Source: a virus
Taxonomy: Duplodnaviria; Heunggongvirae; Uroviricota; Caudoviricetes
IMG/VR virus record: IMGVR_UViG_2529292907_000010
Strand: one strand, 5' to 3'
Length of the DNA stretch: 9,695 nucleotides
Of this stretch, positions 2,842 to 9,695 are shown piece after piece. The translations under genes and the position numbers were made by a program. How positions within the stretch are numbered: position 1 is the stretch's first letter; each line of letters opens with the position of its first letter. The notes under the pieces are model-generated. The model was not told the DNA's origin, searched no databases, and saw only the letters and a list, made by a program, of their open reading frames with translations.

Positions 2842-2918
2842 TACGATACCTGCGTCATAATTGATTATTTCTCGTGGTTTGATGGCGTACACACATGTTG
2901 TGATAAACCTTATATAGA

Positions 2919-2933
2919 TGATAATCATTATCA
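2919..2933. promoter_or_regulatory. Perfect 7-1-7 palindrome TGATAAT-C-ATTATCA, identical to the core of the Fur-box consensus; function unproven
   Basis: TGATAATCATTATCA read at 2919-2933 matches the central 15 bp of GATAATGATAATCATTATC. A second ATAAT-tg-ATTAT palindrome is at 2857-2868. A plausible sigma70 promoter (-35 TTGTGA 2898-2903, 16-bp spacer, -10 GATAAT 2920-2925) overlaps it on the plus strand. It lies about 40 bp upstream of cosN and may instead be part of the conserved cos flank. Confidence 0.35.
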
Positions 2934-2970
2934 TTTTCGTGGGTCCTTTCCGGCGATCCGACCGGTTACG

Positions 2971-2982
2971 GGGCGGCGACCT
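2971..2982. other. cos: cos cohesive-end sequence (cosN core, GGGCGGCGACCT)
   Basis: GGTTACG|GGGCGGCGACCTCGCGG...TATTTATGAAAATTTT matches the junction of the lambda right and left genome ends as I remember them. Position immediately upstream of Nu1 is as in lambda. Confidence 0.85.
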
Positions 2983-3020
2983 CGCGGTTTTTCACTATTT
3001 ATGAAAATTTTTCAGGGAAA

Positions 3021-3131
3021 ATCGTGTCGGTACTTCTCGAATATAACTTTTTGTTTTTTTAATATTGCATCCGTAAAGGTCCGACATGAAAGTGTCCGAA
3101 AATGCCTTTTTCTGGCGTTTTCACGTCGGGC
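3021..3131. promoter_or_regulatory. cosB: cosB-like region: four copies of a GTCGG/CCGAC-containing element in alternating orientation, with an A/T-tract between them
   Basis: CGTGTCGGTA (3021-3030, +), GGTCCGACATG (3078-3088, inverted), GTGTCCGAA (3092-3100, inverted), CACGTCGGG (3122-3130, +). The layout between cosN and Nu1 resembles the lambda R3-I1-R2-R1 arrangement. Element boundaries are approximate. Confidence 0.4.
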
Positions 3132-3157
3132 CTTGTATTTGATAATGGGTTGTTTTC

Positions 3158-3706
3158 ATGAAGGTTAATAAAAAGAGGCTTGCCGAAATTTTCAACGTGG
3201 ACCCGCGGACGATTGAACGCTGGCAGTCTCAGGGACTCCCTTGCGCCTCCAAAGGTAGTAAGGGCATTGAATCTGTATTTGATACTGCCATGGCAATTCA
3301 GTGGTATGCGCAGAGGGAAACTGATATCGAAAACGAAAAGCTCCGCAAAGAACTGGACGATTTGCGTGCGGCAGCGGAGTCAGATTTACAACCCGGCACC
3401 ATTGACTATGAACGCTACAGGCTCACAAAAGCGCAGGCAGATGCGCAGGAACTGAAAAATGCCCGTGAAGACGGAGTAGTGCTGGAAACTGAACTGTTTA
3501 CCTTCATTCTGCAACGTGTGGCACAGGAGATTTCGGGGATACTTGTGCGTGTGCCGTTGACATTACAGCGTAAATATCCGGACATTTCACCATCACACCT
3601 TGATGTGGTGAAAACTGAAATCGCGAAAGCCTCCAATGTTGCAGCTAAGGCCGGTGAAAACGTGGGCGGGTGGATCGATGATTTCAGACGCGCAGAAGGC
3701 AGCTAA
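3158..3706 (+). CDS. Nu1: Terminase small subunit (gpNu1-like), N-terminal winged-HTH cosB-binding domain
   Basis: 182 aa. [28 protein letters not shown]...[49 protein letters not shown] is near-collinear with lambda Nu1 from memory. Confidence 0.95.
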
Positions 3707-5605
3707 TGCAGCCGGTGCGATAGCTACAGGGCTTTTATCTCTCATTATTCCTGTTCCACTGACGACAGTTCAGTGGGCCAATAAACATTATTACCTTCCT
3801 AAAGAGTCGTCTTATACCCCGGGGCGGTGGGAAACACTGCCGTTTCAGGTTGGCATCATGAACTGTATGGGCAACGATCTGATTCGCACGGTTAACCTGA
3901 TTAAATCTGCCCGTGTTGGTTATACAAAGATGTTGCTGGGAGTGGAGGCTTATTTTATTGAGCATAAATCACGCAACAGCCTTCTTTTTCAGCCCACGGA
4001 CTCAGCTGCTGAAGATTTTATGAAATCTCATGTTGAGCCAACGATAAGGGATGTTCCTGCATTGCTGGAGCTGGCTCCATGGTTCGGAAGAAAACACCGC
4101 GATAATACGCTCACCCTGAAGCGTTTTTCCTCCGGTGTGGGGTTCTGGTGTCTGGGTGGTGCGGCAGCAAAAAACTACCGTGAAAAATCCGTGGATGTGG
4201 TCTGTTATGACGAGCTTTCCTCGTTCGAACCGGATGTTGAAAAAGAGGGTTCGCCAACCCTGCTGGGGGATAAACGTATTGAGGGCTCTGTATGGCCAAA
4301 ATCCATTCGCGGCTCGACGCCTAAAATCAAAGGCTCCTGCCAGATCGAAAAAGCCGCTAACGAGTCGGCACACTTCATGCGTTTTTATGTGCCCTGTCCG
4401 CACTGTGGGGAGGAGCAGTATCTGAAATTTGGCGATGATGCCTCGCCTTTCGGTCTTAAGTGGGAGAAGAATAAGCCAGAAAGTGTTTTCTACCTTTGTG
4501 AGCATCATGGCTGTGTGATCCATCAGTCTGAGCTTGACCAGAGTAACGGGCGGTGGATCTGTGAAAACACGGGCATGTGGACCCGTGACGGCCTGATGTT
4601 TTTCAGCGCCCGGGGTGATGAAATTCCGCCGCCGCGCTCCATCACTTTCCATATCTGGACGGCGTACAGTCCGTTCACCACATGGGTACAGATTGTCTAT
4701 GACTGGCTGGATGCACTGAAAGATCCCAACGGCCTGAAAACCTTTGTGAACACCACGCTGGGCGAGACCTGGGAAGAGGCTGTGGGCGAAAAACTCGATC
4801 ACCAGGTACTGATGGATAAGGTTGTGCGTTACACGGCGGCGGTGCCTGCCCGGGTGGTTTATCTGACGGCGGGCATTGACTCGCAGCGAAACCGTTTTGA
4901 GATGTATGTCTGGGGATGGGCTCCGGGAGAGGAAGCCTTTCTGGTGGATAAAATCATCATTATGGGGCGTCCCGATGAGGAAGAGACGCTGTTACGTGTG
5001 GATGCGGCGATCAACAAAAAATACCGCCATGCAGACGGAACCGAAATGACTATTTCTCGTGTCTGCTGGGACATCGGGGGGATCGATGGCGAAATCGTTT
5101 ATCAGAGGTCAAAAAAACACGGTGTTTTCCGGGTGCTGCCGATAAAAGGCGCATCTGTCTATGGCAAGCCGGTGATCACCATGCCAAAAACCCGCAATCA
5201 GCGGGGCGTGTATCTGTGTGAAGTGGGGACGGACACCGCAAAGAAATTCTCTATGCCCGTATGAAAGCCGATCCCACGCCTGTGGATGAAGCCACGTCGT
5301 ATGCCATCCGTTTTCCTGATGATCCGGAGATTTTTTCGCAGACAGAGGCGCAGCAACTGGTCGCGGAAGAGCTTGTGGAGAAGTGGGAAAAAGGAAAGAT
5401 GCGTCTGCTGTGGGATAACAAAAAGCGGCGTAACGAAGCGCTGGACTGCCTGGTGTATGCCTACGCGGCATTACGTGTGTCCGTGCAACGCTGGCAGCTT
5501 GATCTGGCTGTACTGGCAAAATCCCGGGAAGAAGAGACGACCCGGCCAACCCTTAAAGAACTGGCAGCGAAGCTGTCCGGAGGAGTGAATGGTTACAGTC
5601 GCTGA
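3678..5605 (+). CDS. A: Terminase large subunit (gpA-like), interrupted by an apparent 1-nt frameshift near 5240-5245; possible pseudogene or sequencing error
   Basis: Frame 0 (3678-5264) matches lambda gpA from ...[12 protein letters not shown] through ...[13 protein letters not shown], then stops. The homology continues in the -1 frame ([17 protein letters not shown]...[25 protein letters not shown]... to stop at 5603-5605). The switch occurs in GCAAAGAAATTC; one missing base would restore a single ~641-aa ORF. Likely start ATG 3678, overlapping the Nu1 3' end as in lambda. Confidence 0.88.
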
Positions 5606-5795
5606 ACTGCAGGCGCTGCGTCAGGCGCGCCTTGATTTATTAACCGGTAAACGGGTGGTGTCTGTCCAGAAAGATGGTCGCAGAATTGAATATACGACGG
5701 CTTCTCTGGATGAGCTTAACCGGGCGATCAATGATGCGGAGTCGGTACTGGGGACAACCCGGCGTCGCCGTCGTCCGCTGGGAGTGAGGTTATGA
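5589..5795 (+). CDS. W: Head-tail joining / head completion protein (gpW-like)
   Basis: 68 aa; LLTGKRVVSVQKDGRRIEYTTASL matches lambda gpW ([24 protein letters not shown]). GGAGG upstream; its stop overlaps the portal start as ATGA. Confidence 0.92.
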   Translation: MVTVAELQALRQARLDLLTGKRVVSVQKDGRRIEYTTASLDELNRAINDAESVLGTTRRRRRPLGVRL

Positions 5796-7384
5796 AACGA
5801 ACGCCTGTCCTGATTGATGTGAACGGCGTTCCGCTTCGTGAGAGTCTCAGCTACAACGGGGGCGGTGCAGGATTTGGCGGGCAAATGGCTGAGTGGTTGC
5901 CACCGGCGCAGAGTGCCGATGCGGCCCTGCTGCCCGCGTTGCGTCTGGGGAATGCCCGGGCAGATGATCTGGTGCGCAATAACGGAATAGCGGCTAATGC
6001 GGTGGCTCTGCATAAGGATCACATTGTCGGGCATATGTTTCTGATCAGCTACCGTCCGAACTGGCGCTGGCTGGGGATGCGGGAGACCGCAGCAAAAAGC
6101 TTTGTCGATGAGGTGGAGGCGGCCTGGTCGGAATACGCCGAAGGGATGTTTGGCGAGATCGACGTGGAAGGAAAACGCACGTTCACGGAATTTATCCGTG
6201 AAGGTGTGGGCGTTCATGCGTTTAACGGCGAAATCTTTGTGCAGCCGGTCTGGGATACGGAAACCACGCAGTTATTCCGTACGCGTTTTAAAGCCGTGAG
6301 TCCGAAACGGGTGGACACGCCTGGACACGGTATGGGGAACCGTTTTCTGCGGGCCGGTGTGGAGGTCGATCGATATGGCCGTGCCGTCGCGTACCATATC
6401 TGTGAGGATGATTTTCCGTTCTCTGGTAGTGGACGATGGGAACGGATCCCGCGTGAACTTCCCACCGGGCGTCCGGCCATGCTGCATATTTTCGAGCCGG
6501 TGGAGGACGGGCAGACCCGTGGGGCTAATCAGTTTTACAGCGTCATGGAACGGCTGAAGATGCTCGATTCCCTGCAGGCAACACAGCTTCAGTCGGCCAT
6601 AGTGAAGGCGATGTATGCAGCGACGATTGAAAGTGAACTTGATACCGAAAAGGCCTTTGAATATATCGCCGGCGCGCCACAGGAGCAGAAGGATAATCCG
6701 CTTATTAATATTCTGGAGAAGTTCTCCAGCTGGTATGACACGAATAACGTGACACTGGGCGGTGTCAAAATTCCGCACCTTTTCCCTGGTGATGATCTGA
6801 AACTACAGACTGCGCAGGATTCAGACAATGGATTTTCTGCGCTTGAACAGGCGCTGCTGCGGTATATCGCCGCCGGTCTTGGCGTTTCCTACGAACAGTT
6901 GTCCCGTGATTACTCGAAGGTCAGTTACTCAAGTGCCCGCGCCTCCGCCAATGAGTCGTGGCGCTATTTTATGGGGCGGCGAAAATTTATTGCGGCCCGG
7001 CTGGCCACGCAGATGTTTTCCTGCTGGCTGGAAGAGGCACTTCTTCGGGGGATTATTCGTCCGCCACGGGCACGTTTTGATTTTTATCAGGCGCGATCAG
7101 CCTGGTCACGGGCAGAGTGGATTGGTGCCGGAAGAATGGCCATTGACGGGCTCAAGGAAGTCCAGGAATCAGTGATGCGCATTGAGGCCGGACTGAGCAC
7201 GTATGAGAAAGAGCTGGCGCTGATGGGCGAGGATTATCAGGACATTTTCCGCCAGCAGGTCAGGGAATCTGCTGAGCGGCAAAAAGCCGGACTCTCACGT
7301 CCGGTGTGGATAGCGCAGGCGTATCAGCAGCAGATAGCGGAGAGTCGCAGGCCGGAAGAGGAGACAACACCACGTGAGACGTAA
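5792..7384 (+). CDS. B: Portal protein (gpB-like)
   Basis: 530 aa with long collinear matches to lambda gpB: GNARADDLVRNNG, FEPVEDGQTRGAN, LQSAIVKAMYAATIESELDT, LLRYIAAGLGVSYEQLSR, WIGAGRMAIDGLKEVQE. Confidence 0.96.
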   Translation: MKRTPVLIDVNGVPLRESLSYNGGGAGFGGQMAEWLPPAQSADAALLPALRLGNARADDLVRNNGIAANAVALHKDHIVGHMFLISYRPNWRWLGMRETAAKSFVDEVEAAWSEYAEGMFGEIDVEGKRTFTEFIREGVGVHAFNGEIFVQPVWDTETTQLFRTRFKAVSPKRVDTPGHGMGNRFLRAGVEVDRYGRAVAYHICEDDFPFSGSGRWERIPRELPTGRPAMLHIFEPVEDGQTRGANQFYSVMERLKMLDSLQATQLQSAIVKAMYAATIESELDTEKAFEYIAGAPQEQKDNPLINILEKFSSWYDTNNVTLGGVKIPHLFPGDDLKLQTAQDSDNGFSALEQALLRYIAAGLGVSYEQLSRDYSKVSYSSARASANESWRYFMGRRKFIAARLATQMFSCWLEEALLRGIIRPPRARFDFYQARSAWSRAEWIGAGRMAIDGLKEVQESVMRIEAGLSTYEKELALMGEDYQDIFRQQVRESAERQKAGLSRPVWIAQAYQQQIAESRRPEEETTPRET

Positions 7385-8879
7385 TCTTTCACACATTATT
7401 GCCGCAGCATTCAATGAACCGCTGCTTCTGGAGCCCGCCTATGCGCGGGTTTTCTTTTGCGCGCTCGGGCGCGAGATGGGGGCAGCAAGTCTTTCGGTAC
7501 CACAACAGCAGGTACAGTTTGATGCTCCCGGAATGCTGGCTGAAACGGACGAGTACATGGCCGGAGGTAAACGACCTGCCCGTGTTTACAGGGTGGTGAA
7601 CGGTATTGCTGTACTGCCGGTGACCGGCACGCTGGTGCACCGGCTGGGTGGTATGCGGCCATTTTCCGGAATGACAGGCTATGACGGTATTGTCGCCTGT
7701 CTTCAGCAGGCAATGGCGGATAGCCAGGTGCGGGGCGTACTGCTGGACATTGACAGTCCGGGCGGGCAGGCCGCCGGCGCGTTTGACTGCGCTGACATGA
7801 TTTACCGCCTCCGTCAGCAGAAGCCGGTCTGGGCACTGTGCAATGACACGGCCTGTTCTGCAGCCATGCTGCTGGCGTCGGCCTGCTCCCGACGGCTGGT
7901 TACCCAGACATCCCGTATCGGTTCCATTGGCGTGATGATGAGCCATGTCAGCTATGCCGGTCATCTGGCGCAGGCCGGTGTGGATATCACGCTGATTTAC
8001 TCAGGGGCGCACAAGGTGGATGGCAATCAGTTTGAAGCGTTGCCGGCAGAGGTTCGCCAGGACATGCAGCAGCGGATTGATGCGGCGCGCCGGATGTTTG
8101 CCGAAAAAGTGGCGATGTTTACCGGTCTGTCTGTTGATGCAGTCACGGGAACAGAGGCCGCCGTTTTTGAAGGTCAGTCCGGCATTGAGGCCGGGCTGGC
8201 GGATGAATTAATCAATGCGTCGGATGCCATCAGTGTGATGGCCACGGCGCTGAACAGTAATGTCAGAGGAGGCACTATGCCGCAATTAACTGCAACGGAA
8301 GCCGCCGCGCAGGAGAACCAGCGAGTGATGGGGATCCTGACATGCCAGGAAGCGAAAGGACGTGAACAGCTTGCCACGATGCTGGCAGGACAACAGGGCA
8401 TGAGCGTTGAACAGGCCCGGGCGATTCTGGCCGCGGCGGCACCGCAGCAGCCGGTGGCATCCGCGCAGAGTGAAGCCGATCGCATTATGGCGTGTGAAGA
8501 AGCGAACGGTCGTGAACAACTGGCGGCAACGCTGGCGGCGATGCCGGAGATGACGGTGGAACAAGCCCGCCCGATCCTGGCGGCTGCACCACTGGCGGAT
8601 GCCGGGCCCTCACTTCGTGATCAGATCATGGCCCTGGATGAGGCAAAAGGGGCAGAAGCGCAGGCTGAAAAACTGGCGGCCTGCCCGGGAATGACCGTGG
8701 AGAACGCCCGGGCTGTGCTGGCTGCGGGATCAGGTAAGGCCGAACCGGTCTCTGCATCCACAACCGCCCTGTTTGAACATTTCATGGCGAATCATTCACC
8801 GGCAGCGGTGCGGGGTGGCGTGTCACAGACGTCAGCAGACGGTGATGCGGACGTGAAAATGCTCATGGCCATGCCATGA
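7374..8879 (+). CDS. C: Head maturation protease / scaffold fusion (gpC-like, S49/ClpP-fold protease domain) with an expanded C-terminal scaffold region
   Basis: GTG start 7374 with GAGGAGA 9 nt upstream. N-terminal 300 aa collinear with lambda gpC (AFNEPLLLEPAYARVFFCAL, NGIAVLPVTGTLV, SPGG, RRLVTQTSRIGSIGVMM). The C-terminal part holds three tandem ~45-50-aa modules where I recall lambda having one. Confidence 0.93.
   Translation: MRRNLSHIIAAAFNEPLLLEPAYARVFFCALGREMGAASLSVPQQQVQFDAPGMLAETDEYMAGGKRPARVYRVVNGIAVLPVTGTLVHRLGGMRPFSGMTGYDGIVACLQQAMADSQVRGVLLDIDSPGGQAAGAFDCADMIYRLRQQKPVWALCNDTACSAAMLLASACSRRLVTQTSRIGSIGVMMSHVSYAGHLAQAGVDITLIYSGAHKVDGNQFEALPAEVRQDMQQRIDAARRMFAEKVAMFTGLSVDAVTGTEAAVFEGQSGIEAGLADELINASDAISVMATALNSNVRGGTMPQLTATEAAAQENQRVMGILTCQEAKGREQLATMLAGQQGMSVEQARAILAAAAPQQPVASAQSEADRIMACEEANGREQLAATLAAMPEMTVEQARPILAAAPLADAGPSLRDQIMALDEAKGAEAQAEKLAACPGMTVENARAVLAAGSGKAEPVSASTTALFEHFMANHSPAAVRGGVSQTSADGDADVKMLMAMP
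8277..8879 (+). CDS. Nu3: Nu3-like scaffolding protein, in-frame nested within the 3' part of C (internal translation start)
   Basis: In-frame ATG 8277 preceded by a strong GAGGAGG (8265-8271), at the position corresponding to the lambda Nu3 internal start (lambda ...SGGRMTKETQ vs here ...RGGTMPQLTA). Encodes the triplicated module region. Confidence 0.5.
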   Translation: MPQLTATEAAAQENQRVMGILTCQEAKGREQLATMLAGQQGMSVEQARAILAAAAPQQPVASAQSEADRIMACEEANGREQLAATLAAMPEMTVEQARPILAAAPLADAGPSLRDQIMALDEAKGAEAQAEKLAACPGMTVENARAVLAAGSGKAEPVSASTTALFEHFMANHSPAAVRGGVSQTSADGDADVKMLMAMP

Positions 8880-8915
8880 AGTCAGTGCTGACCATCAATA
8901 TGAGGTTTTAACAAA

Positions 8916-9263
8916 ATGGTGACGAAAACCATCACTGAACAGCGTGCGGAAGTACGTATTTTTGCTGGTAATGATCCGGCTCATACCGCCACAGGCAGCA
9001 GCGGGATTTCTTCTGCAACACCGGCTCTGACGCCCCTGATGCTGGATGAAGCCACCGGGAAACTGGTGGTCTGGGATGGACAGAAAGTCGGTAGTGCGGT
9101 TGGCATACTGGTACTGCCGCTTGAAGGCACAGAGACGGTGCTGACCTATTACAAGTCGGGGACCTTTGCGACGGAGGCAATCCGCTGGCCTGACAGTGTG
9201 GATGAACACAAAAAGGCAAATGCCTTTGCCGGCACAGCCCTGAGTCACGCGGCTCTGCCGTAA
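8916..9263 (+). CDS. D: Head decoration protein (gpD-like)
   Basis: 115 aa; NDPAHTATG, TPLMLDE...KLVVWDG, AVGIL, YYKSGTF, AFAGTA match lambda gpD. Confidence 0.93.
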   Translation: MVTKTITEQRAEVRIFAGNDPAHTATGSSGISSATPALTPLMLDEATGKLVVWDGQKVGSAVGILVLPLEGTETVLTYYKSGTFATEAIRWPDSVDEHKKANAFAGTALSHAALP

Positions 9264-9320
9264 CACGTTATCAGGCCACCATGGTGGCCTGACTGATTTC
9301 TGAATGAAAGGAACTGATTT

Positions 9321-9695
9321 ATGGGATTGTTTACGACCCGCCAGTTACTCGGTTATACCGAACAAAAAGTTAAATTCCGTGCGCTATTTCTGGAGCTGTT
9401 TTTCCGCCGTACGGTGAATTTCCACACCGAAGAGGTGATGCTGGACAAAATTACCGGAAAAACGCCGGTGGCGGCCTATGTCTCCCCGATCGTTGAAGGA
9501 AAAGTGCTGCGCCATCGTGGTGGTGAAACCCGCGTGTTGCGTCCGGGCTACGTCAAGCCGAAACACGAATTTAATTACCAGCAGGCGGTTGAGCGCCTTC
9601 CCGGTGAAGATCCGGCTCAGCTGAACGACCCGGCCTACCGTCGTCTGCGTATCATCACTGATAACCTCAAACAGGAAGAGCACGCTATTGTGCAG
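9321..9695 (+). CDS. E: Major capsid protein (gpE-like), 5' portion only; runs off the end of the window
   Basis: ATG 9321 with AAAGGAA upstream. MGLFTTRQLLGYTEQKVKF..LFLELFFRR...YVSPIV.G.V.R.RGG....PGYVKPKHE...RLP.EDP..L.DPAYRR.RII matches lambda gpE. No stop before 9695. Confidence 0.9.
   Translation, partial: MGLFTTRQLLGYTEQKVKFRALFLELFFRRTVNFHTEEVMLDKITGKTPVAAYVSPIVEGKVLRHRGGETRVLRPGYVKPKHEFNYQQAVERLPGEDPAQLNDPAYRRLRIITDNLKQEEHAIVQ

Follow-up and report, generated by a model that had tools for sequence, protein, structure and literature searches.

Phage 21 and its relatives carry their packaging and head genes in the order cos, TerS, TerL, W, portal, C, D, E. The large terminase subunit (TerL) of this type, represented by phage 21 gp2 and lambda gpA, combines a GpA_ATPase domain (PF05876) with a GpA_nuclease domain (PF20454). 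The C-terminal tail of lambda gpA reportedly docks terminase on the portal. General roles of the TerL domains have been described (PMC4669245). Inactivated terminases are known from cryptic lambdoid prophages, in which TerL is disrupted while the neighbouring genes survive. The TerL gene of CE10, for example, is truncated by a deletion, and that of GCA_964053605.1 is interrupted by an insertion element. A different kind of disruption, a change of a single base in a mononucleotide run, is familiar as an indel error of draft and error-prone assemblies. In other systems a shift of frame is programmed: IS1222 (G_CGA_AAG) and dnaX (A_AAA_AAG) need a -1 shift on A_AAG following an NNA codon (PMC5009743).

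The DNA analysed here (the window, 9,695 nucleotides) is the late region of a lambdoid prophage with packaging and head genes of the phage 21 type. It equals, base for base, the entire contig AIFW01000011.1 of the draft assembly GCA_000249615.2 of E. coli DEC6B. The gene order is that of phage 21, with 99.6% DNA identity over 4.6 kb. An endolysin gene lies at 466-999 and a gene for an Rz-like spanin at 1496-1954. A holin gene upstream of the endolysin gene was not found within the contig, a small ORF at 223-354 gave no PHROG match, and the closest relatives used have no counterpart of positions 1-268. The alignment of the window with phage 21 begins at 2971, and on this basis the cos region was placed at 2971-3135 (+ strand) by colinearity with the annotated phage 21 genome, with the left end of cosN at about 2971, followed by cosB R3, I1, R2 and R1. 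The TerS gene (Nu1 / phage 21 gp1 type) at 3158-3706 (+ strand) is intact and is annotated in homologous loci; the exact TerS protein is very common in E. coli. Downstream of the TerL gene, intact head genes occupy 5589-9263 on the + strand: W (5589-5795), portal (5792-7384), protease/scaffold C (7374-8879) and decoration protein D (8916-9263). These assignments follow from the ORF list, Pfam gene calls and the same gene lengths in annotated relatives. The major capsid gene, on the same strand, begins at 9321 and is cut off by the end of the contig. All genes neighbouring TerL in the window are full length, and neither further lesions nor relaxed constraint, the marks of a cryptic prophage, were found in the TerL gene or in its window neighbours. 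An earlier note on this DNA, made from the sequence alone, had described the lysis, portal and capsid genes as intact. The lysis, TerS, W, portal, C and D genes are indeed intact.

In this phage-21-type prophage of DEC6B the TerL gene is split by one missing A. The gene lies downstream of cos, between TerS and W/portal, as in phage 21 and lambda, but unlike phage 21 gp2 and lambda gpA its codon 522 lacks one base and its ORF is broken into pieces of 528 and 114 amino acids. The 5' part (gpA / phage 21 gp2 type; 3678-5264, + strand), defined by translation and Pfam, starts at an ATG at 3678 that was set by annotated homologues in three related loci. It comprises 522 native codons, ending in ACC GCA AAG, then six out-of-frame codons (AAA TTC TCT ATG CCC GTA, read as KFSMPV) and a TGA at 5262-5264 (+ strand) that is the premature stop of the shifted frame. 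Homology to gpA resumes in the -1 frame with GAA at 5243 and continues to a stop at 5603-5605; this 3' part (5243-5605, + strand; translation, Pfam) holds the 120 native codons 523-642 plus the stop and codes for the final quarter of the nuclease domain, followed by the C-terminal tail. The change of frame at about 5240-5245 and the position of the frame 0 stop had thus been read correctly in the earlier note, which had also proposed a comparison with the orthologous gene in close relatives. In an alignment with phage 21 (OL657228), E. coli PapRG-06-5 and E. coli TUM13773, the relatives have GCAAAAGAA where the window has GCAAAGAA. Exactly one base is lost, in codon 522 (AAA), with 100% identity on both flanks over 110 nt. 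The run of three A residues (A3) at 5240-5242 (+ strand) is AAAA (A4) in all relatives, according to the alignment and to indel lists compared against 20 or more loci. Insertion of one A gives an ORF of 642 codons, the product of which is identical at 642 of 642 positions to protein WP_001349605.1 of PapRG-06-5 and differs from phage 21 gp2 at one residue. With the A restored the TerL gene has no other lesion or amino acid change relative to WP_001349605.1. A single ORF of about 641-642 codons is therefore absent as deposited and present once one base is put back.

The two pieces together account for the domains of a complete TerL. The GpA_ATPase domain (PF05876) covers residues 46-293 (E=5.9e-57). 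GpA_nuclease is matched by the N-terminal piece at residues 323-523 (E=1.5e-53; profile positions 3-215 of 294) and by the C-terminal piece at profile positions 230-287 (E=1.8e-11), all by Pfam. As both pieces match the same profile, the resemblance is not due to chance. A complete nuclease match (profile positions 3-286) was obtained only for intact relatives or after restoration of the A, when the domain spans residues 323-601. Through the shift after K522 the C-terminal tail is lost and the domain ends at about profile position 215 of 294. Were the deletion genuine, the TerL product would lack the last ~27% of the nuclease domain (positions ~216-294) as well as the tail. A search for a solved structure of a close TerL homologue found none. 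In the deposited annotation the TerL gene is already divided into proteins of 295 and 114 amino acids. The latter (EHV62569.1; 5261-5605, + strand; ORF list, annotation) starts at native Met529, the ATG of which overlaps the premature TGA as ATGA (5261-5264).

The A3 allele stands alone among roughly 2,950 copies. A scan of 5,426 complete E. coli genomes found A4 at 2,953 places in 1,855 records and the 71-mer of the window nowhere. A 34-nt megablast probe centred on A3, which can seed a match only where the A3 allele is present, gave no match in the same genomes. The A3 34-mer was likewise absent, by exact scan, from viral, GTDB-representative and metagenome collections, and an exact look-up found the truncated TerL proteins on the DEC6B contig only; proteins specific to DEC6B were found in no Logan assembly. 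A lesion common to related strains or to independent assemblies, as decay would leave, was not seen. The 114-amino-acid C-terminal fragment is called as a gene on 24 or more contigs, and it was considered that these share the lesion. This was rejected: an IS21-family insertion, N-gaps in scaffolds, other indels and contig chimeras are the causes, and the same ORF is called repeatedly on disrupted copies because the site of the premature stop overlaps native Met529 as ATGA. Among these contigs A3 is present only in the error-laden Logan ERR10499515, an unrelated contig with the same A4-to-A3 change and ten other homopolymer deletions. Other homopolymer indels in the TerL gene of low-quality assemblies are a shortened adjacent GAAAT run in the draft of E. 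coli 3030-1 (AFDT01000019.1), which has several more indels, and a change of A5 to A4 in the TerL gene of Logan SRR094138 at the equivalent of window position 5395. In GCA_964053605.1 an IS21-family element with IstA/IstB-like genes is inserted in the TerL gene at the equivalent of window ~5250-5262, 10-20 nt downstream of the A run, and this is a bona fide natural inactivation.

The earlier note had left a choice between a real mutation and a homopolymer-type sequencing or assembly error, and both options hold for this lesion, which removes one base from an A4 run and is confined to a single draft contig. On balance we favour, with some reserve, the explanation that the A is missing from the deposited consensus only, through a homopolymer undercall or consensus error in the draft assembly. 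The assembly would have had to separate two nearly identical prophage copies, one A of the A4 run would have been dropped from the consensus by undercall or consensus error, and the actual gene would be a normal 642-codon TerL ORF of the phage-21/lambda type in a lambdoid prophage. A second contig of the same assembly, AIFW01000031.1, carries another cos-to-head region that runs on into tail genes and is 99.75% identical to window 2918-9695, with nine substitutions and eight indel columns. Positions that tell the two copies apart include 4781 (T/C), 5057 (T/C), 5132 (G/A) and 5697 (A/G), the window having G at 5132 and A at 5697. Of the nine substitutions, six fall on known natural polymorphisms, and DEC6B therefore truly has two near-identical phage-21-type head regions. 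At the terminase site AIFW01000031.1 reads A4, and its terminase gene is without private indels. Elsewhere in its 12.3 kb it has eight private 1-nt indels against five to six private substitutions, and the indels break up the portal, C, Z and U genes. At least 8 indels among 13 private changes have a binomial P of 4e-6 to 6e-3, assuming that indels make up 9-25% of real mutations. The simplest reading of this excess is that indel-type consensus errors occur in this duplicated region of the assembly, and the A3 gap would presumably belong to the same class of error. For AIFW01000031.1 itself there are two readings, a contig rich in errors or a sister prophage in decay.

The change thus resembles known homopolymer indel errors in several respects. 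Apart from Logan ERR10499515, the altered run length is private to one assembly; it is a single-base change on one draft contig, the sister contig of which has many private indels, more than it has private substitutions; and the same change was made in an error-laden Logan contig. This contig, together with the homopolymer indels of E. coli 3030-1 and Logan SRR094138 in TerL, independently supports miscalling here in error-prone data. The evidence from the same assembly tilts the choice towards an artefact. Unlike typical homopolymer errors, however, the change affects a run of only 4 nt while longer runs of the same contig are correct. T8 at 2432, T7 at 3054, A7 at 5111, G6 at 5076 and A6 at 5016 all match relatives. 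This suggests decent read support, which would make a consensus error in a 4-mer unlikely. Also against a consensus error, the assembler assigned A3 to one haplotype contig and A4 to another, the outcome expected if the copies truly differ.

A substantial chance, though short of even, remains with the explanation that DEC6B did lose this base in one of its two phage-21-type prophages, through a very recent slippage mutation private to the strain. TerL would then be truncated after K522, and the prophage on its own could neither cut cos nor package DNA, but the near-identical second copy could complement terminase in trans. The deposited sequence does carry the deletion, and the contig is otherwise free of errors in comparison with relatives, its longest homopolymers included; its other indel differences are natural polymorphisms present in complete genomes. 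As the six natural polymorphisms mark the two contigs as genuine separate haplotypes, a difference between A3 and A4 in the two copies is credible. Natural inactivation of TerL has its precedents in the IS21-family insertion of GCA_964053605.1 and the truncation in CE10, which likewise left the neighbouring genes in place. These lesions are large, however, and cannot be base-calling errors, whereas here one base is missing and no other decay is seen. Against a real mutation stand also the singleton status of A3, a TerL gene without a second lesion or any amino acid change, the error-like indel excess of AIFW01000031.1, and Logan ERR10499515, where the identical change is an obvious artefact.

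An error of the draft assembly is a likelier source of the gap than biology, and neither outcome is out of the ordinary. In the case of an artefact, the DEC6B draft and its split-gene annotation should be flagged for indel errors in duplicated prophage regions. If the deletion is real, it would be an ordinary private null mutation that makes one sister prophage dependent on the other for terminase, and thus routine prophage decay with no new mechanism. In general, single-base frameshifts in short contigs of older drafts should not be taken as biology unless reads support them.

It is very improbable that the deletion is real and that a functional enzyme is nevertheless made, either by -1 slippage on A_AAG or from two pieces of TerL. 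In the first of these routes a low-level -1 slip of tRNA-Lys on C_GCA_AAG would remake the exact 642-amino-acid wild type, the deletion acting as a 'savior indel' that throttles terminase. In the second, the 114-amino-acid C-terminal fragment would be made by termination-reinitiation at ATGA (5261-5264), giving a two-piece enzyme. The deletion has created a minimal -1 slippery tetramer, A_AAG (5240-5243, + strand; by direct reading). No Z_ZZN tetramer shifts more readily in E. coli, and IS1222 employs this one together with a 5' NNA codon (PMC4066793, PMC5009743). A -1 shift at 5240-5243 would give ...TAKEILY..., the same as the wild type, and the ATG of an in-frame native Met codon shares two bases with the premature TGA (ATGA). 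Cases of 1-bp deletions suppressed by non-programmed means have been recorded in E. coli (PMC10861913). Tetramers without a stimulator, however, shift at about background level (0.147% versus 0.112%), and the 5.6% frameshifting figure was reached only with the IS3 pseudoknot (PMC4066793). No slippery heptamer X_XXY_YYZ is present at the shift point, where C_GCA_AAG offers the tetramer only. The downstream RNA is no more structured than shuffled sequences, without a stimulatory hairpin or pseudoknot in folds of 5244-5300, 5244-5340 and 5200-5300 (z = +1.02, 0.00 and +0.95). The shift is not conserved among relatives either, phage 21 and all intact loci examined being in frame, and nothing has therefore been selected. 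In these respects the site is unlike IS1222 and dnaX, and its motif exists only through the deletion. As heptamer, RNA structure and conservation are all absent, programmed frameshifting is rejected, as the earlier note had already concluded, and recoding at the A3 site would amount to trace leakiness at most. Reinitiation is disfavoured by the lack of a Shine-Dalgarno sequence before ATG 5261, as read from the sequence, and by the position of the break, within the nuclease fold and with loss of residues 523-528; the ATGA overlap at Met529 is a by-product of the wild-type sequence. That A3 is real and serves, through 'savior indel' slippage or an ATGA two-piece TerL, to throttle the packaging enzyme of one of two co-resident prophages is hardly credible.

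Several other differences from relatives were noted in the window. In the IHF site I1 of cosB, as placed by colinearity, the run at 3054-3060 is T7 in the window but T8 in phage 21 and most relatives, so that R3 and R2 lie 1 bp closer together. This T7 is not private, as it is also found in the complete genomes O18, PMV-1 and CE10 and in AIFW01000031.1. Position 3124, in cosB R1 (by colinearity a TerS-binding site), is C compared to T in the panel, and C occurs in 15 complete-genome records. At 2432-2439 the window has T8 and the closest complete genome, TUM13773, has T7, which alters the C-terminus of a small hypothetical ORF (2305-2445). T8 at 2432 is common in other genomes, and the T-run differences at 2432 and 2934 are both common. 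Decay of the packaging module through window-specific changes other than A3 was considered and rejected, the I1 T7, 3124C and the T-runs at 2432 and 2934 being natural polymorphisms. Position 8562, in the gene C / scaffold region, is C in both DEC6B contigs and A in 17 of 17 panel sequences, and is probably a genuine substitution of the DEC6B lineage or a sign of exchange between the two copies.
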